Positions 28,115-56,152 of a stretch of DNA of 64,000 nt are shown here, one piece after another. The stretch's first letter is position 1. Every line of letters begins with the position of its first letter. The position numbers were made by a program, and so were the translations under genes. Source of the stretch: a virus (Duplodnaviria > Caudoviricetes); the IMG/VR virus record IMGVR_UViG_2687453780_000005, positions 32,001 to 96,000 of that record. One strand, given 5' to 3'. The notes beneath the pieces were generated by a model that saw nothing but the letters and a program-made list of their open reading frames with translations, was not told the DNA's origin and did no database searches.

Positions 28115-28148
28115 CAAGCAAATATCCATTTCATAGGGAGGTAGAAAT

Positions 28149-28301
28149 ATGATAAACAAAATTAATAAAATATTAGAGGAAAAGGGAAGTAAATTCAGAA
28201 CTAAGGACGGTTTTACAATTTGCATGTACATCGGTCATTTAACATTTTTAAAAAGAAGTTTTGAAACACAAGAAGAGTGTTTACAATTTGTAAGCAGATA
28301 A
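28149..28301 (+). CDS. Small hypothetical protein
   Basis: 50 aa with GGAGG RBS, flanked by junction sites. Confidence 0.55.
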   Translation: MINKINKILEEKGSKFRTKDGFTICMYIGHLTFLKRSFETQEECLQFVSR

Positions 28302-28328
28302 AACGATTATTTTCTAGGAGGTTTGCAT

Positions 28329-28544
28329 ATGAGCAGAGAGCGTAAAGAAAAATGGGCAGTATGCGGCGAATACGGCGGTAATTTTACGAACCTTAAAGAC
28401 GCTAAACAGTGCGCAAAAGAAGCCAGTAAAACTCCAGAACATGACTATGAAGCAAGTGTTACATTGATTGAAGAAGGTGCCCATTACATTGATTATAAAA
28501 ATGGAAAATGTACTCGTGATGGCTGGACTATAAAACACAAATAA
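28329..28544 (+). CDS. Hypothetical protein
   Basis: GGAGG RBS; stop codon begins a junction site. Confidence 0.6.
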   Translation: MSRERKEKWAVCGEYGGNFTNLKDAKQCAKEASKTPEHDYEASVTLIEEGAHYIDYKNGKCTRDGWTIKHK

Positions 28545-28572
28545 AAACCGAATTTTAAAGGAGGACTCCATC

Positions 28573-28926
28573 ATGAGAAAGCAGGAAAATTTGAAGTGTG
28601 AAAAATTACTGAAAAGAGCTATAAGAGTAGCCAAACAGGCAGAAGAAGATTTTTCTCTATCCGAGAAATATAATGTAATTAAAACTATTCATTCATTTGG
28701 AAATGGAGGATCGCAAAACATGGAAAAAGAAATACAAAAATTATTAGAGGAAAACAGTTATTCGGTATCCGATGCAGAGGAAGCTATAAATTTTGTAGCT
28801 GCCTTACTAACAATCAGATTGGAAGATATTAAAAAGAATGAATCATATGCAACTAACAGCATTGATAGGTTAGATAAAGCTGTAACAGAAGTAAATGATC
28901 TACTTTGGTTAGAGGATTTACAATAA
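28573..28926 (+). CDS. Hypothetical protein (possible second start at 28720)
   Basis: GGAGG RBS at the start and again internally before MEKEIQ. Confidence 0.55.
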   Translation: MRKQENLKCEKLLKRAIRVAKQAEEDFSLSEKYNVIKTIHSFGNGGSQNMEKEIQKLLEENSYSVSDAEEAINFVAALLTIRLEDIKKNESYATNSIDRLDKAVTEVNDLLWLEDLQ

Positions 28927-28928
28927 CA

Positions 28929-28993
28929 TATTTTATTCCCAGTTTGAAGCCATTAGATCATGTGTCTAGTGGCTTTTATAGTGGGAATAAAAT
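28929..28993 (+). repeat. Long imperfect inverted repeat
   Basis: TATTTTATTCCCA...TGGGAATAAAATA enclosing GAAGCCATTAGA/TCTAGTGGCTTT. Confidence 0.75.
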
Positions 28994-29021
28994 ATTCAAT
29001 AATTAAACGGAGGTAATTACA

Positions 29022-30692: not shown

Positions 30693-30698
30693 GAGTGA

Positions 30699-32351
30699 AT
30701 GACAATGTTTATATCAAATGCAGATTTTTACCCAACGCCAGGGCATCTTATTGAAAAGATGCTCTTTTCTTTGGACTTTAACAGGATCAAAAGTATCTTG
30801 GAGCCAGAGGCCGGGAAAGGGGACATAGTAGAAAGATTAAAGGAAAAAGAAAAGTCTATGTCTGACCGTTGGCAGAAGGTTTCCTTTGACATCGATTGCG
30901 TAGAGCAAGACGAAAATTTACGTCATATTCTCAAAGGTAAAGGATATCGGCTTGTACACAATGATTTTTTAACCTATGAGACTATGAAAGAATATGACCT
31001 TATAATCATGAATCCTCCTTTCTCTAATGGCTGTAAGCACCTTTTAAAAGCCTTAGAAATGCAGAAACGGAACGGCGGTGCTATTGTTTGTTTACTTAAT
31101 GCTGAAACGCTTAAAAATCAGTGTAATAATGATCGGATAATGCTTACTAGGCTGTTAGAGGAATACAATTCAGATATTGAGTATATAAAAAATGCATTTA
31201 CCGATGCAGAGCGAAAGACAGGCGTTGAAGTTGCCTTAATAAAGGTGCAGCTTCCAGTGGTCAAAAGACAATCATTCATCTTTGACGGACTTAAAAGGGC
31301 ACAGGAACAAAGAGAGTGTGAACAAGCAGAAAGCGCCTATTTGGCTGAAAATGATTTGTTTAAATCTATAGTGGGGCAATACAAATTAGAGGTAGAAGCA
31401 GGCATAAAACTGATAAAAGAATACTACGCTATGTATCCTTATATTATGACTTCTTTCGGTAAAGATGAAAAAACTGGCGAGACAGTTCAGAAGGGCGGAT
31501 GTATCCTGGATCTTGATTTGTCAATAAATACTGACAAATACAAAAGTGGTTTGTCTGTAAATGGCTATATCCGGGAAGTACGTGGCAAATACTGGACAGC
31601 GTTATTCCAAAATGAAAAATTTATTGGGCAGCTCACCGGAAACTTGCGGCAAGATTTTTATAATAGACTTGAAGATTTAAAAGACTATGACTTCTCTTTG
31701 TATAATATTTATGAATTAAAAATTGAGATGCAGAAGAAAGTAGTGACCGGGATAGAAGATACTATTATAGCTTTATTTGATGAACTAAGCCATAAACACT
31801 ATTGGGATAAAGATACTTCTAGCAACATTCACTATTATAACGGCTGGAAGACAAATAAAAGCTGGTTTATTAATGAAAAGGTTATTATTCCATTATCCGG
31901 TTGGGATTCAATATGGAACCAATTCAGGATTAACGATTATCAGATTGTAGAGAAGTTGCAAGATATTGAAAAATGTTTCAACTATCTTGACGGTGGATTA
32001 ACTGAGGCCATAGATCTAAAGGAAACGTTGGAGTTTTCTCAAGAATATGGAGAAACAAGAAATATCACGTTGAAGTATTTCAACATAACATTTTACAAAA
32101 AGGGAACTTGTCACATTATATTTACCAATCCTGAACTTTTAAAAAAGTTCAATATTTTTGGATCACAGAAGAAAGGCTGGCTCCCTCCTTCTTATGGCAA
32201 GAAGAAATATAAAGACATGACAGCGGAAGAAAAAACCGTTGTGAACGAATTTGAGGGAGAAAAAGAGTATGCCAAGGTAATGAATAACACAAAGTATTAT
32301 TTGTTTGATGGAGACAGAAGCATGAACTTGCTAGAAGATAAAACAGCATAA
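30699..32351 (+). CDS. N6-adenine DNA methyltransferase, DUF4942-type
   Basis: DFYPTP, LEPEAGKG, IIMNPPF, YFNITFYKKGTCHI. Confidence 0.88.
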   Translation: MTMFISNADFYPTPGHLIEKMLFSLDFNRIKSILEPEAGKGDIVERLKEKEKSMSDRWQKVSFDIDCVEQDENLRHILKGKGYRLVHNDFLTYETMKEYDLIIMNPPFSNGCKHLLKALEMQKRNGGAIVCLLNAETLKNQCNNDRIMLTRLLEEYNSDIEYIKNAFTDAERKTGVEVALIKVQLPVVKRQSFIFDGLKRAQEQRECEQAESAYLAENDLFKSIVGQYKLEVEAGIKLIKEYYAMYPYIMTSFGKDEKTGETVQKGGCILDLDLSINTDKYKSGLSVNGYIREVRGKYWTALFQNEKFIGQLTGNLRQDFYNRLEDLKDYDFSLYNIYELKIEMQKKVVTGIEDTIIALFDELSHKHYWDKDTSSNIHYYNGWKTNKSWFINEKVIIPLSGWDSIWNQFRINDYQIVEKLQDIEKCFNYLDGGLTEAIDLKETLEFSQEYGETRNITLKYFNITFYKKGTCHIIFTNPELLKKFNIFGSQKKGWLPPSYGKKKYKDMTAEEKTVVNEFEGEKEYAKVMNNTKYYLFDGDRSMNLLEDKTA

Positions 32352-32396
32352 AGAAATGAAAAGTAAGTTTCATTTGAGGATTGGAGGCCCAATAAT

Positions 32397-33193: not shown

Positions 33194-33242
33194 AAGACGA
33201 ATCAGGTTAAAAACGCAATTTCAAGTGAAGATGGAGGAAAAT

Positions 33243-34268: not shown

Positions 34269-34317
34269 CATGAAATACATGATTTAACGGTTTATAGACC
34301 AGAAGGGAATTGATAAT

Positions 34318-34773: not shown

Positions 34774-34809
34774 TAGCAAATCAAAAATAGAATTGAAGGG
34801 AGCACGGAT

Positions 34810-35067: not shown

Positions 35068-35133
35068 CTACATGAAAGACAGGTTTCAATCCTATAGTTA
35101 TCGGTAAGCTTAAACCGTTAGAGAGGTGAGAAT

Positions 35134-35961: not shown

Positions 35962-36084
35962 AATTTTATTATGAACTAGATAAAGATGGGCAAATCAAAA
36001 TGTCTATAAATGGAAAGTACATAGGTACATTCAGTAATTTCACAGAAATATATGCTTTACATACTCTTATTTGAAAAATACATA

Positions 36085-36224
36085 GCCTTGTCGGTGATCT
36101 GGAAGGATAGATCGTGCTGCAAAAGTAAACAAGGCATTCCCGGCAGTCTGAAAGTGATTGCTGCTTACCACAGATAATTAGTGGTTGACCTGGCGTAAGC
36201 CACTAACCGCACATAATTAGCGGT
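36085..36224 (+). ncRNA. Compact multi-hairpin RNA element
   Basis: GCCTTGT/ACAAGGC, GATCT/AGATC, GGCAGTC/GATTGCT, TTAGTGGTT/AGCCACTAA stems in a GC-richer intergenic island. Confidence 0.45.
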
Positions 36225-36249
36225 ATATTATTTATAGGAGGTGTTTCGT

Positions 36250-36441
36250 ATGGAATATAGAGAATTAGAGCAATGTGAGGATTTTGACAAGCTGGAAGCA
36301 GTGTTTGACGATAATATGCTTAACTATTATGAAAAGCAGCTAGAAGGCTATTTGAGCGGATCAGAGGAGCGGCCGGTGGTTGCTTGTTGGTGGGAAGGTG
36401 CCATGAGTACAGAGGACTTTATAGAAATGTATGTATCTTAA
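36250..36441 (+). CDS. Hypothetical protein
   Basis: GGAGGTG RBS. Confidence 0.6.
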   Translation: MEYRELEQCEDFDKLEAVFDDNMLNYYEKQLEGYLSGSEERPVVACWWEGAMSTEDFIEMYVS

Positions 36442-37026: not shown

Positions 37027-37218
37027 ATGAGCATTAAATCTAATAGTAAAAGAAAAGAAGTTATTCGTTTAATATTGCAGGAAGGTTTTCTTCCACTGAA
37101 TATGCAAATTATAAGAGAAGATTCAGATTTCAGAGCAGCCATGTACGAGATGATAGCGGAAGGCACGTTAAGATTTAGGAATTGTGAGGGTGCTGCCGTT
37201 GAATTAAATGAGGCGTAG
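37027..37218 (+). CDS. Hypothetical protein
   Basis: GAGGAG RBS. Confidence 0.55.
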   Translation: MSIKSNSKRKEVIRLILQEGFLPLNMQIIREDSDFRAAMYEMIAEGTLRFRNCEGAAVELNEA

Positions 37219-37426: not shown

Positions 37427-37490
37427 GTGAGATGCTACTGAATCAAAAGATATTCAGTTAAAAGAGATATTTTATAGAAAGGATTAAAAT

Positions 37491-37676
37491 ATGTGCAAAG
37501 ATTGTTATTTTGTGGATAAAGGGGAAGATGGAAGATTTCTCTGTACGTGTGAATCTAGCGAGAAACTTTATAAATACGTATCAGATATTTTTGTTTGTGA
37601 TGAGTATGTAACAAAAATCGCACATGATTATAGGACAATGAATCCATTTGAATTTGCATCAAAGTATTATGGATAA
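37491..37676 (+). CDS. Small Cys-rich protein
   Basis: CxxC...CxC...C. Confidence 0.6.
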   Translation: MCKDCYFVDKGEDGRFLCTCESSEKLYKYVSDIFVCDEYVTKIAHDYRTMNPFEFASKYYG

Positions 37677-37701
37677 AAACAAGATTTGATCTTGAAGAGA
37701 G

Positions 37702-37938
37702 GTGACTACAATGTCGTTTTATTTTCCGATGATATCAAGCGATATCGAGAGAAAAGAATATAAGCAGAGGGTAGATGAAAAACTAGAAGATCTTTATGAG
37801 GATCTAAAATGGTTGATACATTGGGAAGATACTTTTAATTCAGAGGTTAGTTTTTATAGAGATGAAAACATGGTATCTGATTATACATATTTAAAAAATG
37901 TAATTGATAAAATATTAAAAAGGAGAATAAAAAAATGA
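37702..37938 (+). CDS. Hypothetical protein
   Basis: ORF track; GAGGTG RBS near ATG 37711. Confidence 0.55.
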   Translation: MTTMSFYFPMISSDIERKEYKQRVDEKLEDLYEDLKWLIHWEDTFNSEVSFYRDENMVSDYTYLKNVIDKILKRRIKK

Positions 37939-38267
37939 GCAAATTAAGAGTGTGGTGGATTCCACAGATAGGTATTAAAGAGACATTTTATATCCCAGTA
38001 AACACACCGGAGGAAGGGAAGAAATTTTTAGATGCCTTGGCTGCATATGACGCTTTTCAGTTGCAGAATAATGTAAAACCAGATTATTGCAACGTCGGAG
38101 GGCTACAGATGTTTGATGAAAGCGAACAGGAATGGAATGATTGGTGCCTAGAGTACTACGATGATGTAGATGATTATTGTGAATCAAAAGATTGTCAACT
38201 AAGAGAAGAGCTGACACGGTTTAATCAGGAATTATTTGAACAAATTGATTGGAACAGATGCAAATAA
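37935..38267 (+). CDS. P22 gp17-like (annotated superinfection exclusion) protein
   Basis: KLRVWWIPQ...EEG...DALAAYDAFQ...KPDYCNVGGLQMF pattern. Confidence 0.65.
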   Translation: MSKLRVWWIPQIGIKETFYIPVNTPEEGKKFLDALAAYDAFQLQNNVKPDYCNVGGLQMFDESEQEWNDWCLEYYDDVDDYCESKDCQLREELTRFNQELFEQIDWNRCK

Positions 38268-38298
38268 ATCCACAATTTAAAGCAGGAAAGGATAACAC

Positions 38299-38538
38299 AT
38301 GAATAAGAAATTTTACGAATATTCAAATGCGTCTAGATATCCGACTGTAAATGAAGTTGTATCTCCTCATTGTCCTACTGGTGAAGACGATCCTGTTACA
38401 TTTCTAGCATATGCAGAAGGTAGGAAAGCAGCTTTTTATCTGGCTATGGCTCATATTTACGATGGGAAGCCTCTACAAAGGTTCTATGGAGAATATAATG
38501 GTGAGAATTACCACGGAGAGGTATCGTGTGTAATGTAA
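38299..38538 (+). CDS. Hypothetical protein
   Basis: ORF flanked by junction sites 38265 and 38540. Confidence 0.6.
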   Translation: MNKKFYEYSNASRYPTVNEVVSPHCPTGEDDPVTFLAYAEGRKAAFYLAMAHIYDGKPLQRFYGEYNGENYHGEVSCVM

Positions 38539-38747
38539 ATGAAATCAGGATTTTAAAGGAGGTTTAAATGAAAATTGGAAAAGTAGACTTATCACCGCTA
38601 TATGACTACTTGAATGGAAGCCAAATCGAGGGAGAAAGAGTAGTAGTTTATGACAACAGCAACGCTAAACATGTGTGGAACTATAGGGGTGGTAAATATA
38701 TAACCGAATAAACCGAGATTAGTCGGAATAAATACGGAGGTAAAACA

Positions 38748-39776
38748 ATGACATATCACGAACAGAATGATATCCAGAATATAAAAAAACTTAGAAGTAT
38801 TATATCCGCTTTGCCAGCTTATTGTGAAGACTTCTTTCGAGGAATCGAGCCGAGAACTTCTTCCAAGACAAGGATTGCTTATGCCGGTTATTTAAGGCTC
38901 TTCTTTGATTATTTAATTAGAAGCAGTAAAGCTACAAATATGGAGTCAATTACTCTTGATGTGTTGGAAAACCTGAAAGTCATTGATTTTGAAAAATATA
39001 TGGAATGGCTAAAATGTTGGAGTGATGATTCAGGGAATGAAAATACAAACGGGGAATATAGCCTAAAGAGCAAAATATCGGCATTAAGAGCATTCTACAA
39101 ATATCTTTATCAGAATGAGAGGATAAAGAATAACGTAGCGTCGCTTGTGCAGCTTCCCAAATTGCATGACAAAGAAATAGTACGTCTTGACAGTGACGAA
39201 ATGAAAGCATTTATCCAGGTTGTAGAAACTGGTGAAGGTTTAGAAGGAAGAGAACGTGCCTTCTTTGAATTGACCCGGAAGCGAGACTTAGCAATAATTA
39301 TGTTGCTGCTCACTACGGGAATCCGTGTTTCAGAATGTGTTGGTTTAGACATCAAAGATGCGGATTTCAAAAAAAGCGGGATTAGAATATACCGGAAGGG
39401 AGGAAAAGAAGAAACCGTATATTTTAGCGATGATGCCAGAGAAGTCTTAGAATCTTATATAGAAGAAAGAAAACAAGCAGAGGCAATCAAAGGGCATGAA
39501 AATGCTCTATTTTTATCTTTGCAGAACAAACGGATATCAACCAGAAGCGTAGAAGATTTAATTCCTAAGTATGCAAGGTTGGCAGGAATCCAGAAGAAGG
39601 TTACTCCTCATACACTACGTAGAAGCTATGGAACGGCCTTATATAACGCCACAGGGGACATTTACCTAGTCGCTGGTACATTGGGCCACGCAGATGTGAA
39701 CACCGCCAAACGGCACTATGTGGCATTAGAAGACGAGAAAAAAAGAGAAAATAGGAACGCTGTTAAACTGAGATAG
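38748..39776 (+). CDS. Tyrosine recombinase (XerC/XerS-like), catalytically intact
   Basis: TGIRVSE (R), RKGGK (K), HTLRR (H-x-x-R), LGHAD (H), HY (Y). Confidence 0.93.
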   Translation: MTYHEQNDIQNIKKLRSIISALPAYCEDFFRGIEPRTSSKTRIAYAGYLRLFFDYLIRSSKATNMESITLDVLENLKVIDFEKYMEWLKCWSDDSGNENTNGEYSLKSKISALRAFYKYLYQNERIKNNVASLVQLPKLHDKEIVRLDSDEMKAFIQVVETGEGLEGRERAFFELTRKRDLAIIMLLLTTGIRVSECVGLDIKDADFKKSGIRIYRKGGKEETVYFSDDAREVLESYIEERKQAEAIKGHENALFLSLQNKRISTRSVEDLIPKYARLAGIQKKVTPHTLRRSYGTALYNATGDIYLVAGTLGHADVNTAKRHYVALEDEKKRENRNAVKLR

Positions 39777-39946
39777 AAGACATGTTAAATGAGAATGGAG
39801 AAAAATAATATGAACAAGAATAATCAGCTGGTATTAGATCCGGGAGATAAGATAATTTGTAATGAAAACGATCCACATGTATGGTATGATAATATGAAAG
39901 AAGCACTTGAAAACGCAGGATTTACACTATCGAAGGAGGTGGCATA

Positions 39947-40192: not shown

Positions 40193-40271
40193 TCTAAAAT
40201 TGCAAGTAATCCTAGATTTTACTGTGTTGCATGGTTAAAAGGATTGTTTTATTGTAAAAGGAGTAAATATT

Positions 40272-40964
40272 ATGAGCGAATATAAAAAAGAGCAAACAAA
40301 ATTTGGTGAAAAGACAACTCATCCTGCGTACGGTATGTTATCATTTAGCAGAAGAACCGGTAGTAAAACTCCCTTGTTTGGTAGCAGCATAGAACACAGA
40401 GATACGATTGCTATGACGCTTACACATGGAGATATTACCAGAGGTTTAAACTCAGATTGGTATCATGGTAACGAAATTATTGCTGAAGTTGAAATGAGTT
40501 ATTCTCAATTTGCAGAAGCAATCACATCTATGAATATGGGAAGTGGAGTTCCAGTTACTGTACGACGAACTGAAAAAGACGGTAGGATACCAGAATGTGA
40601 TTTTGTAAATAAGAAGGAACAGTTTCAAGATGAATTAAAAGAAAGATTATCAAATGCAACAAAAATGTCTCGCTGTTTGATTAAAGAAGTCCAAACGCTT
40701 TTTGATGAAGAGAAAACGTTGACTAAGTCAGACAAAGCAGAAATTATTAATAAACTCACGAAAGTATCTTCTGAAATTAATGGCAATGTTAATTTTACTT
40801 ACGAGATGTTTAATGAGCAGATGGATAAGACGGTTATGGAAGCTAAAGGTGAGATCGAAGCATTTTATCAGAATAAGATAAATTCGATTGCACAAGCTAC
40901 TTTGGTAGAGCATAAAGATTACTTAGTTGGATTAGAAAATCCGGTTGAAGTTGACTTGAAATGA
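40272..40964 (+). CDS. Conserved phage hypothetical protein
   Basis: HPAYG...LFGSSI...VEMSYSQFAEAITSMNMGSGVPVT. Confidence 0.7.
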   Translation: MSEYKKEQTKFGEKTTHPAYGMLSFSRRTGSKTPLFGSSIEHRDTIAMTLTHGDITRGLNSDWYHGNEIIAEVEMSYSQFAEAITSMNMGSGVPVTVRRTEKDGRIPECDFVNKKEQFQDELKERLSNATKMSRCLIKEVQTLFDEEKTLTKSDKAEIINKLTKVSSEINGNVNFTYEMFNEQMDKTVMEAKGEIEAFYQNKINSIAQATLVEHKDYLVGLENPVEVDLK

Positions 40965-41254
40965 TTATTTGATTGGGGGATAAAGAGTGAAAGATCAGTT
41001 AAGCAGGATCAATAATAAAGTACAAGTAACTGGGAGTCTTGATAGGTTAAGACTAGCTCTTCTGCTTAATGATGTTAAAGAAAACCCAGATAAATATCCG
41101 CGTGATACAAATGATTGGGTAGAGTGGTTAAATAGAAGACAGTTGGGATAGAGTTAATCGAACATATCATTGAATCGGATAAGTTATTAGATGGATTATA
41201 TAAAGATGAAGATCAGTTAAAATAATAGTTTTAAATCTAACGTGGAGGATTTAT

Positions 41255-41705: not shown

Positions 41706-41924
41706 ATGGCAAGATATAGGGTAGGGGCTTTAGTAAGTTCTATGATTTATGACGAATTTGATGCAGATAATGAAGAACAGGCAAAGGAAATGATGTGTGA
41801 TAAATATGGAGATATGTCTATTACCTTGTGTGCACATTGCTCAACTAAAATTGATGGTTTGTCAGTAAGTGAAAATACTGAAGATTATGAAGTTGAAGAA
41901 ATAAATAAGCAGGATGAAATTTGA
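41706..41924 (+). CDS. Small acidic hypothetical protein
   Basis: AGGAG RBS; CxxC. Confidence 0.6.
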   Translation: MARYRVGALVSSMIYDEFDADNEEQAKEMMCDKYGDMSITLCAHCSTKIDGLSVSENTEDYEVEEINKQDEI

Positions 41925-41942
41925 GTTTGAATTAGAAAGGTT

Positions 41943-42158
41943 GTGATTTATTTGCAAGAACAATATAGACTTGTTAAAGACTTAAATACAGAAGATACAT
42001 GGGAATTTGATAAAGGAAATGCCACTCTTAAAAAAGGACTCATGTGTTATTTAGACACTTGGGAAAGATGTCCGACTATTATGTATGATGGAAAGGCTAT
42101 TTGTGATTTTGATAGTAAGATGGCTAACGAATGTTTTGAAAAGGTTAATGAAATCTAA
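41943..42158 (+). CDS. Hypothetical protein
   Basis: GAAAGG RBS; flanked by junction sites. Confidence 0.6.
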   Translation: MIYLQEQYRLVKDLNTEDTWEFDKGNATLKKGLMCYLDTWERCPTIMYDGKAICDFDSKMANECFEKVNEI

Positions 42159-42183
42159 GATTCATATGGAGAAGGGGCATAAT

Positions 42184-42590: not shown

Positions 42591-42659
42591 AAATAAAGAA
42601 AACTGTTGACATGGTGTGAAATTAGTGATATAGTTACGTCAGATGGAAATAAAGAAAAC
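42591..42659 (+). promoter_or_regulatory. sigmaA promoter bracketed by two AAATAAAGAAAAC boxes
   Basis: Box 42591-603, TTGACA 42606-17 bp-TATAGT 42629, box 42647-59. Confidence 0.85.
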
Positions 42660-42698: not shown

Positions 42699-43250
42699 GT
42701 GTCAACAGTAAAAGTGATTGGAAATAATGTGTGTTTATTAAATAATGATAGGGTGGTTCACAGCAGGAGCATAGCGGAAACTATATATTGCGGAGAGGTG
42801 AGATATGCATATCTTCCCAAAATGCCTACTGTTGAGGGATTAAAGTTCCACATTCAAGAGAAAGCAAGACCTGTTTTGATCGTATCAAACAACGCTAACA
42901 ATAGAGCCACCAACGGTAACGTCCAAGTTATTCCGTTTACATCAAAAGACAAGACCAGTTTGCCAACTCATTTATCATTCAAGGCAGGAGAATTTGGGCT
43001 TGCAGAAGATTCAATTTTGATGGCCGAGTGTGAGACGCAGATTCCAGCAATGTTTGTTTTTGAAAAAATCGGCGAAGTAAATGATAATAAAATTATTGAA
43101 GATATCGTCCAAACGATAATTATTCAGCATGGCTTGTTTGCAAAACTTATGAAAAAGAGATATAATAAGTCGAATGTGAACCGATCAGTGTCTGATTATA
43201 AGGTTATCGAAGGGAGAAAACATAATGACTTCGAAAGAAATATTGGATAA
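42699..43250 (+). CDS. MazF/PemK family endoribonuclease
   Basis: QEKARPVLIVSNNANN...VQVIPFTSK...LPTH...DSILMAE. Confidence 0.85.
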   Translation: MSTVKVIGNNVCLLNNDRVVHSRSIAETIYCGEVRYAYLPKMPTVEGLKFHIQEKARPVLIVSNNANNRATNGNVQVIPFTSKDKTSLPTHLSFKAGEFGLAEDSILMAECETQIPAMFVFEKIGEVNDNKIIEDIVQTIIIQHGLFAKLMKKRYNKSNVNRSVSDYKVIEGRKHNDFERNIG

Positions 43251-44184
43251 TTTTTCGAAAATAGACTCAAAATCTACAGCAGCAGCAAAATACATCAATG
43301 GACAGAATCCTTTTCAATATGAGGAAGAGTTTGGAGCAGACTTTATTCACTTTACTGATAAGATGATATCAGATATGTTGCTTGAAAAGAAGAGGTATTA
43401 TAGATTATTCTATTTATCGAAAGCAATAACATATTACCGTCAATTCTACGACTACTGTAGGAGTTGTGGATATATTAATAATAATCCTGTAAGCGATAAT
43501 TCCATATATTTTACTTATTCATATATGTTGCAAAAAATTGTTAAACTCGGAAACGTAGAATTATATTCAAGAAATTATATTACAAGTAAATGCAACGGGT
43601 TTGACGAAAATACTCCATATTACAAATCAATTGCACTGTCCATCTATGAAGGTGTTAAAGACTTTAACTCTCTATCTAAAATCAAGTACAGCGATATTGA
43701 TTTTGAAAAAGGTATTATTAAAGTAGCCGATGATCATATAAAAATATCAGAAGAATTGCTTCAGACATATAAAGATATGTATGATATGAATTCCTTTAAG
43801 AATATGTCAAGACAAGAATACTTTTTATTTGATGATTCTATTGATTCTTTAATAAGGCAGTTTCAGAAAAGAGGAGAAGGAAAATCAAGTAATGACTTGG
43901 TTAGATTTGCAAGATTTATGAGTTTAAAAATTGTCGAAACAGGCTTAGACTGTAATTTCATTTATGATTCTGGATTGATATTTAGGTTATCAGAAATTCT
44001 TGGAAAAGAAAGATTATTAGAAATTCTTGAATATGATAGTGGCTTAAGTAAAAAAGAAAAAATAGAAAATAATAAGGCTATGCAAGCTGCCCTTATAAAA
44101 GCAGGAAGCAATCTTCTGTGCAAAAACTTCTTGTTTGACTATAGAGTATATGGCGTTTGTTTGAAAAATAATTTAATAAAGTAA
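43225..44184 (+). CDS. Degenerate tyrosine-recombinase-fold protein, MrpR/YopR-like repressor
   Basis: ALSIYEGVK..SLSKIKYSDIDF box-I remnant lacking catalytic Arg; IYDSG in place of HxxR; 319 aa. Confidence 0.65.
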   Translation: MTSKEILDNFSKIDSKSTAAAKYINGQNPFQYEEEFGADFIHFTDKMISDMLLEKKRYYRLFYLSKAITYYRQFYDYCRSCGYINNNPVSDNSIYFTYSYMLQKIVKLGNVELYSRNYITSKCNGFDENTPYYKSIALSIYEGVKDFNSLSKIKYSDIDFEKGIIKVADDHIKISEELLQTYKDMYDMNSFKNMSRQEYFLFDDSIDSLIRQFQKRGEGKSSNDLVRFARFMSLKIVETGLDCNFIYDSGLIFRLSEILGKERLLEILEYDSGLSKKEKIENNKAMQAALIKAGSNLLCKNFLFDYRVYGVCLKNNLIK

Positions 44185-44648: not shown

Positions 44649-44972
44649 ATGATTTCTTTCAAAGAACTAATAATGTCAAATCAATTAAAGGACATAGTTA
44701 TTCATGTGGATTATATGTCAGGTGAATGTGTGGAAGTTGATATAAAAAAATATAAGCTTTTTAAATGCGAAGAACCAGGACAAGCACTGGTGGTGGGCGA
44801 TACACCGATTCCATCAATTAGAATATTTACAGATAATGTGGAGCTGTTGAGTAAGGAAGAAATGCTGGGAAAAGTAATTGCAATAGAAGCCAGGCACAAA
44901 GATACATATTATAACTTTTACATACATAGTGGGCTTGACTTTACGAAAACAACAATTGAAGATGTTGCTTGA
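44649..44972 (+). CDS. Hypothetical protein (paralog pair member 2)
   Basis: Preceded by AAATAAAGAAAAC box at 44620. Confidence 0.6.
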   Translation: MISFKELIMSNQLKDIVIHVDYMSGECVEVDIKKYKLFKCEEPGQALVVGDTPIPSIRIFTDNVELLSKEEMLGKVIAIEARHKDTYYNFYIHSGLDFTKTTIEDVA

Positions 44973-45053
44973 AAATGCGTATTTGCTAGTGAGATATAGC
45001 AATTAAAAACAGAATCTTATTTGAAATAAAAATCTAAATAGAGAAAGGATATT

Positions 45054-45607: not shown

Positions 45608-45643
45608 TGAGTTGAACCTTTTAATGAGAGATGGGAGAAAATA

Positions 45644-46179: not shown

Positions 46180-46225
46180 TTGCGAACAAACTCGTGTTTG
46201 ATAGTAAATGAAAGGAAGGCTTAAA

Positions 46226-46516: not shown

Positions 46517-46545
46517 ATAAAATCTTTGTTTGGTGAGGAGGTATA

Positions 46546-46781: not shown

Positions 46782-47014
46782 GAGGTAAGCATGAATATAT
46801 ATTTAAAGTTGATTAAGCCAATTTTGGGATTGGATTGTAATAATTTTGAGTTTAGAGATGTTGATTCAATTTCAAATGACACGCATTTGGAAATTATAGA
46901 TAAAGCAAGTATGCAGCTTGAATTTAAATGTAGGTTGGATAATATTGATAGTCTTGTAAAGGAAGAATAATTTACTATAGAAGGATAATTTTATAAAAAG
47001 ATGGAGGAATATGA

Positions 47015-47494: not shown

Positions 47495-47764
47495 GTGAAG
47501 AGATTGACAAGAAGAAGTAACGTTGGAGAAGGGCTTCCTGCAAGTCACTTGAATTTAATGGTTATGGACACTACAAGTCAAGATACACTCACAGAAATTC
47601 TGGAATTATTAGCGGCCTATGAAGATACTGGATTATCACCAGAAGAGATAGAAACTGCTAAGAGTGCGGCGAAGCTGTTTTATAAGGATTTTCCTAAAAA
47701 TGTTGGGAAAGCAACTGATATGTTACCGACAGCACTTTTCAATGCTGATCTAAAAACTGATTAA
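47495..47764 (+). CDS. Phage hypothetical protein
   Basis: MKRLT...LAAYEDTGLSPEEI motif. Confidence 0.65.
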   Translation: MKRLTRRSNVGEGLPASHLNLMVMDTTSQDTLTEILELLAAYEDTGLSPEEIETAKSAAKLFYKDFPKNVGKATDMLPTALFNADLKTD

Positions 47765-47796
47765 AGGTGCATTTGATGAGGAATGGAGGCAGGTAA

Positions 47797-48452: not shown

Positions 48453-48668
48453 GCAACACCTAGCGGATAGCATAAGTGTTATTTCTAATATAACATTTCT
48501 AATGGCTTATTTCAAGCCGGTTATCCATCTATGAAAATTACAATGAAACTCCGCTTTTATTCGGTGGTTGCAAACACTGAGTTTAAGCGTAACAAATAAA
48601 AAATAAGAAAGGTAAAACAGTAAATTCTAGGATAAAGAGAATGCGCATTCCCTGTATATAGGGAAAAT

Positions 48669-50297
48669 TTGAATACAGAAAATAAATGCGGAGCTTTAAA
48701 TAAAGTAAGGTTAACTGGAAATATTTTATTTTCAGGAATTGGTGCTCAGGAACGAGGATTTGAAGACTCAGGATTGTTTGAAATAGAAGTATTAACTACA
48801 TCTGACATTTGTAAGGAAGCAGTTCTATCTTACGCTGCTATCCATTGTGGATTGACATGTAAAATGGTTGAAAACTACCCTGATTATCCAACTAGGGAAG
48901 AAATGGCACAGCATTTAACAAATATCAACTTGGGATATGAACCAGACAAAAATAAGTATTACGATTGGTTCAAACTAATAAAGAAGAAAAATAAAGAACT
49001 TGAAAAGTATTGGTTGGCATGTAAATTAAGTAACAATCTTGGTGATATTAGTAAAATTGAGGAATTACCATATGCTGACTTTTGGACAGTAAGTTTCTGT
49101 TGCCAAGATATTTCGGTGGCTGGAAAAATGAAGGGGTTAAAGCCCGACAGTGGAACGAGGAGTAGTTTGCTTTGGGATAATATTAAGTTATTAGAGAGAG
49201 CAAAAAATAATAGTACTCTTCCAAAATACATTATGTTTGAAAATGTAAAGAATTTGGTAAGCAAGAAGTTTATTAATGATTTTAATGATTTAATTGATGT
49301 GCTTGGAGAACTTGGATTCAATACATATTGGAAAGTGATTAATGGAAAAGACTGTGGGATTCCTCAAAATCGTGAAAGAGTTTTTGTTATCGCAATTCGT
49401 AAAGATATTGATACTGAGAAATTTGAGTTTCCGACTCCATTTGATAATGGATTAAGGCTCAGAGATATTCTTGATACTGTTGTCGATGAGAGGTTTTATC
49501 TATCAGATGAAAAGGTAAAAGATATGATCTCTAATATGAGTCCTTGTTGCAAAAATAAAAACTCTGTTATTCGAATTGGTAAAATCAATTCATCTCAGGA
49601 CGGACTGGTTGTTGACATCAATGGATTGTCTCCAACCCATACATCTGGGCATGGAAATTCACCTAAGATTATAACAGTTGGTAATGTTAATCCGTCTGGT
49701 AACGGAATGAATGGTAATGTATTTTCTGACAATGGTTTGGCACCCACATTAACTACTAATAAAGGTGAAGGGAATAAGATTCTAATCAATAAGGAGTCGA
49801 ATGAACTTCAGCAGGTTGGCTCCATAAACAATTATAACGATGATGCTAATCGTGTTTATAGTGATAATCTTGCAAGAACGCTAAAAAGTGAAGCTGGTGG
49901 AGGGGGTGCTAAAACTGGCTGGTGTCAAACCAGCGTAGAATGTAACCACACAGAATTTCCTTGTATTTATGATGATAGGGATAAGGGGTTTGGAGTAAAA
50001 ACGTCTGATTATTGTCCCACTCAAAGAGCTGAAAGATTTGGAATTAAGTGTATTGAAGTAACCAAGAGGGTGAGAAAACTTATTCCTAAAGAATGCTGGA
50101 GACTCATGGGGTTCAGAGACTCAGATTGCGAAGCAGCTTCGAATATTGGAGTAGCAGATTCACATTTATATAAGGAAGCTGGCAATTCTATTATAACAAA
50201 CTGCGTCAGACTTCTGGCGGAGCATTTGTATAAGGCTCAATATGATAATACATATAAGTGTACCGATGAAAATTTTACACAACCACAGGTGGATTAA
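48669..50297 (+). CDS. C5-cytosine DNA methyltransferase with long multi-repeat variable region
   Basis: LFSGIG, SFCCQDIS (motif IV), ENV, PQNRERVF, RKLIPKECWRLMGF, YKEAGNSI. Confidence 0.93.
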   Translation: MNTENKCGALNKVRLTGNILFSGIGAQERGFEDSGLFEIEVLTTSDICKEAVLSYAAIHCGLTCKMVENYPDYPTREEMAQHLTNINLGYEPDKNKYYDWFKLIKKKNKELEKYWLACKLSNNLGDISKIEELPYADFWTVSFCCQDISVAGKMKGLKPDSGTRSSLLWDNIKLLERAKNNSTLPKYIMFENVKNLVSKKFINDFNDLIDVLGELGFNTYWKVINGKDCGIPQNRERVFVIAIRKDIDTEKFEFPTPFDNGLRLRDILDTVVDERFYLSDEKVKDMISNMSPCCKNKNSVIRIGKINSSQDGLVVDINGLSPTHTSGHGNSPKIITVGNVNPSGNGMNGNVFSDNGLAPTLTTNKGEGNKILINKESNELQQVGSINNYNDDANRVYSDNLARTLKSEAGGGGAKTGWCQTSVECNHTEFPCIYDDRDKGFGVKTSDYCPTQRAERFGIKCIEVTKRVRKLIPKECWRLMGFRDSDCEAASNIGVADSHLYKEAGNSIITNCVRLLAEHLYKAQYDNTYKCTDENFTQPQVD

Positions 50298-50310
50298 ATT
50301 CTGCTTGTGG
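50270..50310 (+). promoter_or_regulatory. Putative -1 programmed ribosomal frameshift signal
   Basis: A_AAT_TTT heptamer in frame, 6-nt spacer, 11-bp stem 50283-93/50300-10. Confidence 0.7.
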
Positions 50311-50605
50311 AGATCAACCAGTGTTATTAGGCGGAGTTGGAGAAATAAACTTTGGGAAGCAATACAGACAAGGGAATCGAATTTATGATTCAAATCATAT
50401 TGCAATGTGTGTTCTGTCTCAACCAGTGGGAAATGCGGGGGGATATAGTTACTTATATGCAGTATATGAACCAATTTGTGCTGCTATGAGAGGCAGATAC
50501 GATGAAGATGGCAAGATTCAACAGCAATTAGAACCGAGATATGATGGTTTAACCAACACAATTACAACGGTTACTAAGGACAATTTAATTGTAGAGAACA
50601 GATGA
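50277..50605 (+). CDS. -1 frame extension of the methyltransferase (TRD-like module)
   Basis: Open -1 frame YTTTGGLNSACGDQPVLLGGVG...QGNRIYDS...TNTITTVTKDNL; no RBS for GTG 50321. Confidence 0.65.
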
Positions 50606-50624
50606 AATTAAAGTTTGCTTCAGA

Positions 50625-51451: not shown

Positions 51452-51562
51452 AATAGAAACAGAGTTTAATTGGAGGGAAGACGTAAACATTAGAAGACTT
51501 GGTTTTGAGAGAATTATGAAATGACGATTTCAATTGGTAAACCCATATTTAGCCGAGAAAAG

Positions 51563-51587: not shown

Positions 51588-51595
51588 GGTGAAAA

Positions 51596-51938: not shown

Positions 51939-52229
51939 ATGGAAGTTACTATCGGGGATAAGATTTATATTTCAAATGAAAAGAAGCCGTATACCGTAAA
52001 AGCTAGAGACAATAGATACATCATTTGTACAAAACCATTCAATCCTCAAAGAACAGTCTTATATTTCATAATTGATTTAGAAGCAAAACGTAGAGCACCA
52101 GATGATAGAGTATTTTGTTCTGGGTATGAGACAGATGAACATTGTATGGCAAGATTAAGAGAATTACAGAGTGGCAAGATTGGATTGAGTTGGCGGAGAG
52201 GTATTCCACTGGACGTTGATGTGGAATAG
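51939..52229 (+). CDS. Conserved phage hypothetical protein
   Basis: YTVKARDNRYIICTKPFN..TVLYFIID. Confidence 0.7.
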   Translation: MEVTIGDKIYISNEKKPYTVKARDNRYIICTKPFNPQRTVLYFIIDLEAKRRAPDDRVFCSGYETDEHCMARLRELQSGKIGLSWRRGIPLDVDVE

Positions 52230-52299
52230 AAATTGAGATATTGCCAATAGAAGTAACGATTCAACGGAGAATTAAATTATTGAAAGGTGGTGAAAAGTA

Positions 52300-52659
52300 G
52301 TGCATCCGAACAAATTTTTTAAGGAAGTATCCTGCAAGACAGGGTTAGATATTTTTGAAATATTCGATGAAGATATTAAATTGAAATTGCAGAATGTTCA
52401 TCCTAAGAACTTCCTTAAAACAAAAATAACGTTACCTGTCTATAAGGTCACACTAGATTATTATACAGAAAATGATAATCACAAGATTGTCGAGCGATAT
52501 ATGGTTATGGATAGCCCTGGTGAAGAAGAATTTTCTGATTTTTGGGCAGATATTTATTGCCGCGATTATAACCAAGAGAATCCGGATAGGCAAATGAAAA
52601 ATTTGACTATAAATGATGTTGTACATATATGTGACGCTGTGCTACCAATTGGTTGTTGA
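52300..52659 (+). CDS. Hypothetical protein
   Basis: GGTGGTG RBS, GTG start. Confidence 0.6.
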   Translation: MHPNKFFKEVSCKTGLDIFEIFDEDIKLKLQNVHPKNFLKTKITLPVYKVTLDYYTENDNHKIVERYMVMDSPGEEEFSDFWADIYCRDYNQENPDRQMKNLTINDVVHICDAVLPIGC

Positions 52660-52835
52660 TAGATGTCGATTGTATTTAGAACCTTTATTTATTAAAGGTT
52701 GTCACGAGGTTGCAAAAATGGATCGTTGATTTAAAGCAATCGAAAAAGGAATGTGATAGTGACGTAAAAAGACACTCACTAAGTATGGCTTTACCTCATA
52801 AAAAGCGAAATTGATTTTTATGAGGAGAATACATA

Positions 52836-53921
52836 TTGACATTAGAACTAGGTGAGATTTTTAATACATTGCCTAAAGACGTAATAATAACCAACAATTT
52901 TATAAAGGCATGGAAAATAATAAATAACCCAGATTACGAAAAGATAGTTTGCTCTATTTCCGGTGGCTCAGATAGCGATGATATGTTAGATATTTGCTAT
53001 AAATGCGACATAAATAAAAAGATTGATTATGTGTGGTTCAATACCGGCCTGGAATATGAAGCTACCAAAGAACACTTAAAATACTTGGAAGAAAAATATG
53101 ATGTTGTTATCAAGGAAATTAAAGCAATAAAGCCAATTCCAGTATCTTGTAAAGAATACGGGCAGCCGTTCATTTCTAAGCAGGTTAGTGAATTTATCGG
53201 ACGATTGCAAAAATACGGGTTTAAGTGGGAGGATAGAACTTTTGATGAATTACTTGTTAAATATTGTGTTGAAATTCCTGAATCCGAAGCAGTTAAAAAC
53301 GGGAAGATTAAAAAAGGAATTGCAAAACATCAGGATAAGTATTGGAGAGGTTGCGTTTCAGCTCTAGAGTGGTGGTGTAATACTAAGAAGTCTAAGAAAT
53401 TAGGAATTACACAAAACAAATGGTTAAAGGAATTTTTAATTGCCTATCCTCCGTTAGATATACCAATATCAAATAAGTGTTGCATAGGAGCTAAAAAGGC
53501 TGTCATTCATAAATTACTCAAAGAAGGAGGTTATGGACTTAGCATCGTCGGAATTAGGAAAGCAGAAGGTGGAGCAAGAGCAACTGCTTATAAGAATTGC
53601 TTTGACGAAAACGATGATTCTTGTGATAATTATAGGCCATTATTCTTTTATAAGAATGATACGAAAACTGTCTATGAAAATCATTTTAATATTTGCCATA
53701 GTAAATGTTATATGGAGTATGGTCTGAAAAGAACTGGTTGTGCCGGTTGCCCCTTTGGTAGAGATTTTGAGTTTGAACTAGAAGTAATACAGAAATATGA
53801 GCCAAAACTATTTGCGGCGGTAAATTACATATTCGGCAAAAGTTATGAGTACACAAGACGCTATAGAGAATTCTGTAAGATGATGAATGAGCAAGAGAAA
53901 CAAAATAAACCAAGGAAATAA
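52836..53921 (+). CDS. Phosphoadenosine phosphosulfate (PAPS) reductase family protein
   Basis: ISGGSDSD PP-loop, NTGLE, KCC, GIRKAE, RTGCAGCPF. Confidence 0.88.
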   Translation: MTLELGEIFNTLPKDVIITNNFIKAWKIINNPDYEKIVCSISGGSDSDDMLDICYKCDINKKIDYVWFNTGLEYEATKEHLKYLEEKYDVVIKEIKAIKPIPVSCKEYGQPFISKQVSEFIGRLQKYGFKWEDRTFDELLVKYCVEIPESEAVKNGKIKKGIAKHQDKYWRGCVSALEWWCNTKKSKKLGITQNKWLKEFLIAYPPLDIPISNKCCIGAKKAVIHKLLKEGGYGLSIVGIRKAEGGARATAYKNCFDENDDSCDNYRPLFFYKNDTKTVYENHFNICHSKCYMEYGLKRTGCAGCPFGRDFEFELEVIQKYEPKLFAAVNYIFGKSYEYTRRYREFCKMMNEQEKQNKPRK

Positions 53922-53942
53922 TTCTTTGATTGGAGGATAGAT

Positions 53943-54173
53943 TTGAAAACCAAAATATACCGTCTAAACTATGCGCACGAAGAAAACATTATGGGTAAAA
54001 GGATTGAAATAAAAGCAAGTGATTATCCAAATACCTTACATATACCAACAGAACAAGAGTTGGTATCAGTTGTAAAGAAAAATGGAGAGCCGTGTGTCAT
54101 AGATAAAATCAATGAAATAATTGACTATATTAAATTACCTTGGTATAAGAAGTTATTTTATAAAAGCCAATGA
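53943..54173 (+). CDS. Hypothetical protein
   Basis: GGAGG RBS; flanked by junction sites. Confidence 0.6.
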   Translation: MKTKIYRLNYAHEENIMGKRIEIKASDYPNTLHIPTEQELVSVVKKNGEPCVIDKINEIIDYIKLPWYKKLFYKSQ

Positions 54174-54200
54174 AACAGTACTTTGCTTGGAGGTGATAAG

Positions 54201-54470
54201 GTGTCATGTGATTTTTGCAATGTAAAATGTAATACGTGTATCCATAAGGGAGAGGAGTATGATATCTCTGATTCATGGGAGGATTCTGGCCCAATAATGG
54301 TATCATACTGTAGTAATGATGAGAACTGCAACGATTACGAAAGAGACGGTAACTTTTGTAAGATGTGTGGAAAAAAATTAAATTTGAATATTCGGAGGAG
54401 ATATGAACAGAGAAGACGAATTAAAATTAGAAGCAACAATCAAAGAAAACATGGAGAAGGTAAGATTTGA
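54201..54470 (+). CDS. Cys-rich Zn-finger protein
   Basis: CDFC..CxxC...NFCKMCGKKL. Confidence 0.55.
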   Translation: MSCDFCNVKCNTCIHKGEEYDISDSWEDSGPIMVSYCSNDENCNDYERDGNFCKMCGKKLNLNIRRRYEQRRRIKIRSNNQRKHGEGKI

Positions 54471-54618
54471 AGGATTGGCTGCTGGAGCAAAAGGGATTGC
54501 CGGTGCCATCTTGGAAATTTGCAATGATAAGAATATTAAGAACGATACTGTCAGGATCAATAAGATTAGAGATTTCTGTGTGACAGGACTTGGATTGAAG
54601 AAAGGAAACAATCAGTGA
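54403..54618 (+). CDS. Hypothetical protein
   Basis: GGAGG RBS. Confidence 0.6.
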   Translation: MNREDELKLEATIKENMEKVRFEGLAAGAKGIAGAILEICNDKNIKNDTVRINKIRDFCVTGLGLKKGNNQ

Positions 54619-54845
54619 ATCTAGTTGAATGTTATATTGAAAAAGTATTATCTGTTGAGGATAATACCTCAGAATTTACTACATACATGCAAACAGAAGG
54701 GGATCACCCAGAATTTATTGCAAACGAGCCATACTTAAATGTAATTTGTGTGGTAAATTGCTATGGGAGAAGATCAACAGAATTACATTTATGGAGAAAA
54801 TCAGAGTATGAAAAGTATTTAGAGCAAGGATATTATCTTGCATAG
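54615..54845 (+). CDS. Hypothetical protein
   Basis: GTGA coupling to upstream gene. Confidence 0.6.
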   Translation: MNLVECYIEKVLSVEDNTSEFTTYMQTEGDHPEFIANEPYLNVICVVNCYGRRSTELHLWRKSEYEKYLEQGYYLA

Positions 54846-54864
54846 TTACCATAAAAACATTCTT

Positions 54865-55395
54865 CTATACAATAATAGAACCTTTACTCTCCTCTGGGCA
54901 TTTTGCAACTAAAGTTTTTTGACCTTTATTAGTCGTAAATTTTAATTTTATCCTGTTATTCTCATCAAAAATAGTAACACCTCTTTCAATAGGGAAAGAT
55001 ATAAAACCTATAAAACACTGGTTCCCAGTTAGTTGAATCGGAAGATTTTCAGAAAAGAAACGCTCAGTCCGTGGAATATCTGATTCTGGGAATTTTGGAT
55101 AATAACGTTCACCTATCCACTTATGATTTACATAACAGGGATATTCCTTATCTGAGGTGACTATTGAGATTCTTGTAATTGCAAATGGACTTGTTGAGTG
55201 GTTAATGATACATAAAAGGAAGGTATATTCATCTCTCAGAGATATATCGCTAAATTCATAATTTTGAATGTCTATAGAGAAACGAGTGAGTTTCCTTAAT
55301 GCCGTGTAAATTATCTGAGATATGGATAGAAATAAACTTAAAATAGCAATTGTAAGTGTAACTAAATCTTTATGAGAAACCAAATAATTAATCAT
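54865..55395 (-). CDS. Inverted moron-like membrane-anchored protein
   Basis: N-terminal TM (LVTLTIAILSLFLSISQIIY), AAGGAG RBS, TG-A-TATAAT upstream. Confidence 0.7.
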   Translation of the reverse strand: MINYLVSHKDLVTLTIAILSLFLSISQIIYTALRKLTRFSIDIQNYEFSDISLRDEYTFLLCIINHSTSPFAITRISIVTSDKEYPCYVNHKWIGERYYPKFPESDIPRTERFFSENLPIQLTGNQCFIGFISFPIERGVTIFDENNRIKLKFTTNKGQKTLVAKCPEESKGSIIV

Positions 55396-55580
55396 TAATA
55401 TTCTCCTTAGATTTTATACACTGATTATATCACATTATTAAAAAAACTAAAAGAATAAAATATCAATTTGCTATACGATATCAAGAACGTAGAGACAATT
55501 AGTGCCAGGAAAAAGAAAGTTAAGACAATAACAATATTTCAATAATCACAAGCAAAGTGTAGTTTTATAAACTTAGAAAT

Positions 55581-55652
55581 AAATAAAGAAAACTGTTGAC
55601 ATGCACCGAGATAGGTGTTATCATTATGAATGTACAGATAAATAAAGAAAAC
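55581..55652 (+). promoter_or_regulatory. sigmaA promoter bracketed by two AAATAAAGAAAAC boxes (upstream of replication module)
   Basis: Box 55581-93, TTGACA 55596-17 bp-TATCAT 55619, box 55640-52. Confidence 0.85.
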
Positions 55653-55919
55653 CAAGAAGGAGGTAACAAGATGAAAGGTAGTAAAACAGAGTATGCAAAA
55701 TTCAAAAGTATCATGAGCAAGGTAAAGAAGAACAGGCCAGAGGTTGCAGCCAACGGAAAGGTTAAATGGGGAGCTGGTAAGTAGAGAGGGGTATTACATA
55801 ATGATGATTAGTTTATTTGATGGATTCTTTGCTTTTAACATTGATTGGAAGGCAGTGGTGGCAATGTCGGCAGCACTGGCCGTAATTACATTATGGAGTT
55901 AGAGAGAGGAAAGAAGTCA

Positions 55920-56108
55920 ATGGTTGCTATAATATGTATTTTACTTGGAGTGGCATTAGAGATCATTAAGGCTAATAACTGGTTTATTGTTCCAGATGTT
56001 GCCACATATGTTGTGTTTGGACTTGGCGGATTCTTAGCTTTGGTCAATGTTATCACATGGATTGGAGCAAAAAGATCTGTGAACAAAGTAGCAAAGAGGT
56101 TCAGATAG
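55920..56108 (+). CDS. Small two-TM membrane protein
   Basis: Two hydrophobic helices and a basic C-terminus. Confidence 0.6.
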   Translation: MVAIICILLGVALEIIKANNWFIVPDVATYVVFGLGGFLALVNVITWIGAKRSVNKVAKRFR

Positions 56109-56152
56109 AATTGTGATTTAATCCTAAAAAGATAATAAAAAGAAGGTGAAGC

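Follow-up and report, generated by a model that had tools for sequence, protein, structure and literature searches.

The stretch analysed here, called the window throughout, is 64,000 nucleotides of a Caudoviricetes virus (IMG/VR record IMGVR_UViG_2687453780_000005, positions 32,001 to 96,000) and contains a long array of small genes, many of them separated by short palindromes in which two inverted arms enclose a variable 6-bp core. Comparison with related phages indicates that each core is a conserved address, kept in order while the genes between addresses are replaced. The palindromes are probably minimal tyrosine-recombinase core sites, and matching cores on two phage genomes would allow the slot between them to be exchanged.

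The window corresponds to G000:C2:3265833–3329832 of the host genome and lies within a prophage of roughly 120–125 kb with ∼35% GC, in a host of 43% GC. Minus-strand late genes, a YonO-type RNA polymerase candidate and an MrpR-like repressor accompany the long plus-strand small-gene array, after which come the Sak, helicase, primase and polymerase genes. By this gene plan (MrpR-like repressor, phage RNA polymerase, a recombinase in the YomM slot, a ligase and a long early array ahead of the replication module) the prophage appears to be an SPbeta-like temperate phage. The XerS-like module at its terminus points to a host within Clostridia.

The consensus from 310 validated instances, taken from ten phages, is ATRAAA-N6-TTTYAT, an 18-bp dyad with 6-bp arms and no information farther out. 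An initial annotation of the window had listed 36 sites, all of which carry arm-N6-arm text at their coordinates, with TGAAA-N6-TTTCA as the ideal form; the 6-bp core and dyad arms of that form are retained here and its arms corrected, longer ones carrying no information. The string TRRAA-N6-TTT occurs 80 times in the window compared with 53.8 ± 8.2 in shuffled sequence, and none of 100 shuffles attained 80. The comparison with a matched background that the annotation had proposed was made with open reading frame (ORF) calling blind to the motif and with shuffles that hold the stop codon and ribosome-binding site (RBS) fixed. Sites scoring at least 9/10 were present at 15 of 49 array junctions (2.6 ± 1.5 shuffled, with a maximum of 9 in 500), at 5 of 38 junctions in the left arm (2.9 shuffled) and at none of the five in the replication module, from which they had already been reported absent. 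The palindrome motif is confirmed as real and enriched at array junctions.

The spacing is strict, with 10 perfect sites at a spacer of 6 and only 0–3 at each of spacers 2–5 and 7–12, and together with the dyad arms it agrees with the tyrosine-recombinase geometry suggested earlier. The upstream stop codon forms the start of the left arm in 73 of 333 site instances, and the next start codon follows at a median of 21 nt; the left arm does often supply the stop, as first described. Such overlap with stop codons, at 33% GC, is what would be seen if the palindromes were a chance product of stop codons and AT-rich intergenic DNA; the stop-fixed junction shuffle, the spacer-length control and the collinear sharing of cores described below refute this, and we give it practically no weight. 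A reading of the palindromes as RNA hairpins was rejected because the arms show little covariation, with frequent non-pairing combinations at arm positions 2/15. An Rfam search matched nothing besides a transfer RNA (tRNA).

The sites of the array are given below in 16-bp window coordinates; the number of relatives is the number of phages sharing the core, and sites absent from the earlier list are marked as new. G, L and X numbers are our handles for genomes, loci and sequencing runs.

28118–28133, +: address site, core TATCCA; 7 relatives
28299–28314, +: address site, core CGATTA; 6 relatives
28542–28557, +: address site, core ACCGAA; 7 relatives
28680–28695, +: address site, core CTATTC, within ORF 28573–28926; 7 relatives; new
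32357–32372, +: address site, core AGTAAG; 8 relatives; G015/G025 homology stops here
33208–33223, +: address site; core common to L001 and L054
33521–33536, +: address site, core GATGTC; core common to L001, L054 and L086
33799–33814, +: address site, core TGCACG; 6 relatives; homology to L001, L002 and run X3 begins here
34271–34286, +: address site; 2 relatives; new
34781–34796, +: address site, core AATAGA; 7 relatives; new
35073–35088, +: address site, core GACAGG; 6 relatives; G015 homology stops at site position 14
37459–37474, +: address site; 5 relatives; new
37674–37689, +: address site; 4 relatives
38265–38280, +: address site, left end of the slot 99% identical in run X3
38540–38555, +: address site, right end of the slot 99% identical in run X3
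39774–39789, +: address site using the stop codon of the 38748 recombinase; 3 relatives
40206–40221, +: address site; L002, X2 and X5 homology stops at site position 14–15
40236–40251, +: address site, core GGATTG; 6 relatives
40957–40972, +: address site, core TGATTA; 7 relatives; slot 40236–40972 matches L003 from site to site
41218–41233, +: address site; 4 relatives
41915–41930, +: address site, core TTTGAG; 7 relatives; the slot reaching to 42149 has unrelated contents in most relatives
42149–42164, +: address site, core TCTAAG; left flank common to G015, right flank to G011, L002, X2 and X5
44971–44986, +: address site; a block of 94% identity with L002 stops at site position 14
45610–45625 (approximate bounds), +: degenerate site, core TGAACC, an address in G015/G025/G011/L001; new
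46186–46201, +: address site; 3 relatives
46518–46533, +: address site; 3 relatives
46978–46993, +: address site; a piece of run X5 stops at site position 14
47761–47776, +: address site; 2 relatives
48544–48559, +: address site, core CTCCGC; G009 homology begins here
50603–50618, +: address site, core TTAAAG; left flank common to G009 only, right flank to G016/G066 only
51454–51469, +: address site
51517–51532, +: address site; G011 and G009
52248–52263, +: address site; G015, G011 and L067
52806–52821, +: site, core common to G025/G009 in a relocated block
54171–54186, +: site, core common to G025/G009 in a relocated block
54852–54867, +: probable site where the inverted gene 54865–55395 ends, from a motif match in the window; new
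55456–55471, +: address site; G016 and G066
55552–55567, +: address site, core GTGTAG, the last validated before the replication-module promoter; G011, G016, G009 and G066

Related prophages were drawn from six genomes of the genus together with several viral contigs, and sites in them were called from the arms alone. The core is kept collinearly in relatives for 30 of the 36 sites listed earlier; for those at 52677, 53914, 55526 and 56106, no core support was found in the relatives compared. Nine close relatives share 11–21 cores each with the window (0.9–2.1 expected), and 10–21 per relative are collinear, compared with 4.8–6.8 when the order is shuffled. Reverse-complement cores are shared at 0–1 per pair, and none occur within genomes. 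Two faecal phage contigs with XerS-like genes showed no site excess.

Sharing of cores does not follow the flanking genes. Among 598 shared-core pairs, 488 have homology on neither side, 35 on the left flank only and 29 on the right flank only, with six cores falling in both of the one-sided classes. Under leave-one-out masking, each core position is 92–94% identical in pairs lacking flank homology, against a background of 26–29%. Arm positions 2, 5, 12 and 15 are near background (identity within versus between addresses of 0.46/0.38, 0.86/0.84, 0.80/0.76 and 0.38/0.30, respectively), and the address-specific window is therefore the 6 bp between the arms. The palindromes could instead be regulatory, as sites for transcription or nucleoid proteins or as RNA-processing hairpins, with genes replaced around them by ordinary means. 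They do lie between stop codons and RBSs in a long co-oriented operon, and in SPbeta-like phages the dead recombinase MrpR regulates by binding DNA (PMC10516654). However, a spacer or loop has no reason to be unique to each locus and conserved where its flanks are unrelated, the arms covary little, as described above, and the repressor-type operator is a separate promoter motif present in 8 copies. We therefore hold a regulatory role to be highly improbable as an account of the sites.

The extent of replacement is illustrated by slot 41915–42149, which holds seven protein families in seven phages at a 50% identity cut, with the window and G015 copies 85% alike as DNA. The annotation's suggestion that the array might be an anti-defence library is speculative; the cargo to which names were given comprises only methylases, a PAPS-reductase-like and a MazF-like protein, and a match to a superinfection-exclusion family, this last a PF17420 member (superinfection exclusion gene product 17) that is the cargo of a slot at window 37935–38267. 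In five address-sharing relatives, tblastn found no match to Sak or helicase, and capsid-region genes match only one of them; on this comparison the addresses appear to outlast core genes. SPbeta and phi3T also carry such sites, and several cores are kept there while one or both flanks differ.

If slots are exchanged at the sites, homology between relatives should end there, as the initial annotation had anticipated for gene gain and loss. A site was present in both genomes at 77 of 274 homology ends, compared with 1.2% at random positions, and the ends cluster at site positions 0–3 and 14–17. Of those 77, 45 have identical cores and 10 more differ by one base. Independent sequencing runs end at sites 33799, 35073, 40206, 42149 and 46978, and gut phages 92–99% identical to one another show sharp breaks at two addresses. 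In run X3, slot 38265–38555 is 99% identical whereas the adjoining stretches are 85% and 91% identical, a sign of recent exchange. Run X1, the apparent source sample, has low depth and yielded no joints.

Such crossover points might be real and yet arise from annealing of the Sak/Rad52 type, or through RecA, across short homologies of ∼14 identical bp, with a palindrome-binding or palindrome-cutting protein perhaps starting the process. A Sak-like annealing protein is among the phage gene products (57464–58084), matching addresses supply 12–16 bp of identity and many other breaks lie at RBS micro-homologies. Nevertheless, only the 6-bp core stays identical and the variable positions of the arms drift, a pattern that annealing would not promote; the strict 6-bp spacing and dyad arms fit a dimeric recombinase, and this Sak is the one without a homologue in the five address-sharing relatives. 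We consider annealing unlikely.

Gene order is almost invariant. Shared genes give 1519 concordant and 6 discordant order pairs and keep their address, 34 of 39 after a site and 55 of 60 before one. Exceptions to the fixed order were seen: the block 52806–54186, with two addresses, follows 48544 here and precedes it in G025/G009, and the PAPS-reductase-like gene 52836–53921 sits elsewhere in G016. About eight single-cassette gains or losses between unlike cores were found, partly non-independent, and in each the shorter form retains the upstream core.

The array had originally been likened to an integron, or to Tn916, with cassettes of 1–3 genes captured, excised and shuffled without regard to the core around a central tyrosine recombinase at 38748. 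Cassettes would then leave as circles that carry heterologous cores and re-enter at whichever site, under the action of that enzyme. The single gains and losses agree with the capture and excision of cassettes, one block (52806–54171) is relocated and the 38748 enzyme retains its catalytic residues. Core-blind shuffling, in contrast, is not supported, given the fixed order of cargo and addresses and the persistence of cores when both flanks change. The 38748 enzyme has no orthologue in four relatives (G015, G011, G009 and G025), and its best family is XerS, the integron integrase model TIGR02249 giving only 75 bits against a cut-off of 265. As the main route, excision of circles is improbable, though marginally less so than a regulatory role.

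From these comparisons we infer a catalysed exchange, its enzyme and its circumstances. Sites of 6-bp arm, 6-bp overlap and 6-bp arm would divide the early accessory region into ordered slots. When two related phage genomes meet in one cell, in a superinfected lysogen or on co-infection, the enzyme would join two sites only if their cores match, and the crossover would thus fall at the same address on both genomes. A single crossover would give a left/right hybrid, and two would swap the 1–4 genes between two addresses; within one genome, unlike cores would impede deletions and inversions. More rarely, a cassette may be gained or lost between unlike cores with the upstream core kept, possibly by a single strand exchange at the right core edge that is resolved by replication, a minor route that could add or remove addresses. 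For XerH, recognition is limited to the 5 bp of either arm that adjoin a 6-bp centre (PMC5241119), which makes such short phage sites plausible.

Two recombinases of this phage are candidates for the enzyme, the first within the array and the second in the tail region, ∼5.7 kb left of the window.

38748–39776 (window), +: XerS-like tyrosine recombinase with catalytic R, HxxR, H and Y; variable cargo, a candidate helper enzyme, 56% identical to the host terminus gene
G000:C2:3259136–3260104: recombinase in the YomM slot

The YomM slot is the sole recombinase position filled in every site-bearing phage, with an intact enzyme in all six prophages and SPbeta; the catalytic residues are kept and the sequences are divergent. 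A site follows the stop codon of the YomM-slot gene in all six prophages, with cores that are all TCCSNC, and SPbeta has one site 401 nt past yomM. The YomM-slot enzymes differ too much for their alignment to serve in finding loci. A site follows the gene in 18 of 59 homologous loci, some of them near-copies, compared with 7 of 129 neighbouring late genes. This association is linkage and not proof. The 38748 enzyme scores 201 bits with XerS (cut-off 267), and the YomM-slot enzyme only 27 bits with TIGR02249. Given site-specific recombination, the intact YomM-slot recombinase is our foremost, still tentative, candidate; the XerS-like resolvase of the host, or the copy that the phage carries at 38748, is possible but more doubtful, and any other recombinase accounts for the rest. 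A further tyrosine recombinase lies near the left prophage end (G000:C2:3238431–3239456). The mid-array recombinases of G015, G009 and G025 have low mutual identity and a similar hairpin-containing leader (L015, L027 and L018, respectively) 70–90 nt upstream of the start.

The host xerS-like gene (C1:1450308–1451354) lies at the GC-skew maximum, or turning point. A palindrome ∼270 nt upstream of it, with 14-bp arms and an AAA-N6-TTT centre, is kept in most of 12 genus genomes and is very probably the host dif.

G000:C1 about 1451610–1451650: probable chromosomal dif (L106), upstream of the xerS-like gene at the terminus

Its centre indicates that the geometry of the phage sites is one used by the XerS enzyme class. 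The host dif arms recur on 16 viral contigs, mostly of 4–14 kb, half of them retaining the host core and the others showing six different ones; these are likely integrative mobile elements exploiting Xer recombination (IMEX-type elements). G000 has a duplicated left dif arm and G011/G001 an altered one, as insertions would leave. A classical Bacillus subtilis-type dif was dropped as the host site, since it gave one weak match away from the terminus. Against an XerS-type enzyme for the phage sites, B. subtilis, whose phages SPbeta and phi3T carry the same sites, uses CodV/RipX (PMC5357621).

Several observations weigh against exchange by a recombinase at these sites. The relatives are non-independent samples, and the evidence is comparative, from assembled contigs, and includes neither a recombination product nor a circle nor any enzyme activity. 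A site in both genomes accompanies only 28% of homology ends, many breaks fall at an RBS, at a start codon or inside genes, and run X2 has an insertion at 37218; site exchange is therefore not the sole route. The random-position null, moreover, takes no account of breaks favouring gene borders. The YomM-slot enzymes form three groups with 21–27% identity, and no single recombinase has an orthologue in every site-bearing relative. In a recombinase tree that leaves out eleven host recombinases and is thin on outgroups, five YomM-slot enzymes group with SPbeta YomM (88/85 support), and the tree does not resolve the copy of the present phage inside that clade. Eight cultured phages with YomM-slot homologues have no site straight after the gene, and the site behind it may merely open a second variable region as its first address. 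The host dif arms match the phage consensus at 4 of 6 positions per side and have long outer arms, unlike the phage sites. Finally, phiCD211-like regions shared no cores with the window, from regions that overlap only partially.

A literature search, mostly outside subscription journals, found no description of these phage sites. In engineered recombinase-mediated cassette exchange with heterospecific lox/FRT sites, spacer incompatibility limits exchange to matching sites on two molecules; that laboratory tool has two or few spacers, and the phage array would be a natural version with tens. On sequence features, the sites appear to belong to none of four known systems, namely integrons, pdif modules, Tn916 ends and PeSL (promoter early stem-loop) cassettes, and would work like pdif exchange. 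In pdif modules of Acinetobacter Rep_3 plasmids, acted on by host XerC/XerD, crossover needs identical or near-identical spacers, and two crossovers via a cointegrate explain the replacement of single modules (PMC13141974). Both have accessory genes flanked by sites whose 6-bp spacer varies, and exchange between identical or near-identical spacers (on comparative evidence here). However, pdif sites have asymmetric 11-bp XerC and XerD arms, not symmetric 6-bp ATRAAA/TTTYAT arms, and occur as a handful per plasmid in alternating orientation, with modules that invert and reorder, whereas the phage has 35–50 sites in one orientation and a fixed map order; its enzyme is probably not XerCD. In XerH/difH and XerS/difSL (PMC5241119, PMC5357621), the inverted arms are likewise bound by one protein, with the inner 5 bp read and a 6-bp centre for XerH, and the host XerS-type dif shares with the phage sites its AAA-N6-TTT centre and a dyad with conserved inner arm bases. 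Those systems have one long terminus site per chromosome, with a fixed core, for dimer resolution, whereas the phage sites have no outer arms and ∼80 different cores.

Integrons resemble the array in their tandem small-gene cassettes behind shared promoters, a tyrosine recombinase nearby and sites just past the stop codon. The array nevertheless lacks the attC hairpin (R and L boxes), IntI and reordering, and its exchange would be address-specific rather than directed to one attI. Coupling sequences at Tn916 ends are free to differ, whereas the phage cores are conserved and joins of unlike cores are a minority. The PeSL cassettes of the T4-type phages RB49/phi1 (PMC2839356) are similarly repeated intergenic elements that mediate module exchange in a hyperplastic region. 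PeSLs, however, are repeats of a sigma70 promoter and stem-loop terminator that recombine with nearby copies and give mini-circles, whereas the phage elements are 18-bp dyads with unique cores and neither promoter nor terminator.

The MrpR-like gene of the array encodes a recombinase fold that is not the enzyme.

43225–44184, +: MrpR-like recombinase-fold repressor, catalytically dead (R/HxxR motifs absent in alignment); Atlas 0.98 to PF22822/PF22823 clusters

A BLAST comparison of this protein with SPbeta YopR was without significance and a single-sequence fold reached only a predicted local distance difference test (pLDDT) value of 38; the Atlas assignment settled its identity. A MazF/PemK-like gene without an obvious antitoxin overlaps it (window 42699–44184), and near this position G015, G011, G009 and G025 instead carry unrelated, intact-looking tyrosine recombinases. 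The sequence AAATAAAGAAAAC has eight exact copies, at window 21870 and 21924 (minus strand) and at 42591, 42647, 44236, 44620, 55581 and 55640 (plus strand), compared with an expectation of 0.96 when one mismatch is allowed. Several copies flank TTGACA promoters, and AAATAAAGAAAAC is the probable SPBRE-like operator of the MrpR-like repressor.

Other features of the region were observed. Window 36077–36441 is non-coding and conserved at the DNA level in many relatives, is followed by a 63-residue ORF in 5/5 prophages and gave no clear family in Rfam, NCBIfam or Atlas. The array head (25570–26520) has ∼900 nt with few plus-strand ORFs and no Rfam match. At 48669–50605, a C5 methyltransferase gene is followed by a 94-residue ORF in a different frame that resembles the variable region of that methyltransferase, a possible frameshift extension. 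A small ORF and a ParE/RelE-like toxin gene at 24315–24784 are a probable toxin–antitoxin pair, and a tRNA gene lies in the late region (14050–14124, minus strand). Two ATP-dependent ligase-like genes (G000:C2:3228819–3229739 and 3236818–3237747), close to the left prophage end, have 50% mutual identity, and one is 29% identical to SPbeta YoqV.

The clean replacement of non-homologous phage genes at gene borders is a long-standing question, usually ascribed to random recombination followed by selection. The sequence rule described here predicts where exchange occurs and between which partners and, if true, would provide a concrete, testable cause of phage genome mosaicism in which accessory genes are swapped in the manner of alleles without any gene homology. 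By their addresses, accessory slots can be located and compared without recourse to homology, and DNA assembly might make use of such naturally orthogonal recombination sites. Since the laboratory phages SPbeta and phi3T also carry sites, the reading can be tested there, and yomM would gain a candidate function. More broadly, and tentatively, SPbeta-like phages of Bacilli and Clostridia may possess a dedicated, phage-encoded system of gene exchange, built from a YomM-slot recombinase and an ordered set of tens of mutually incompatible 6-bp cores, which the phage population would keep more stably than its capsid, replication and annealing genes.

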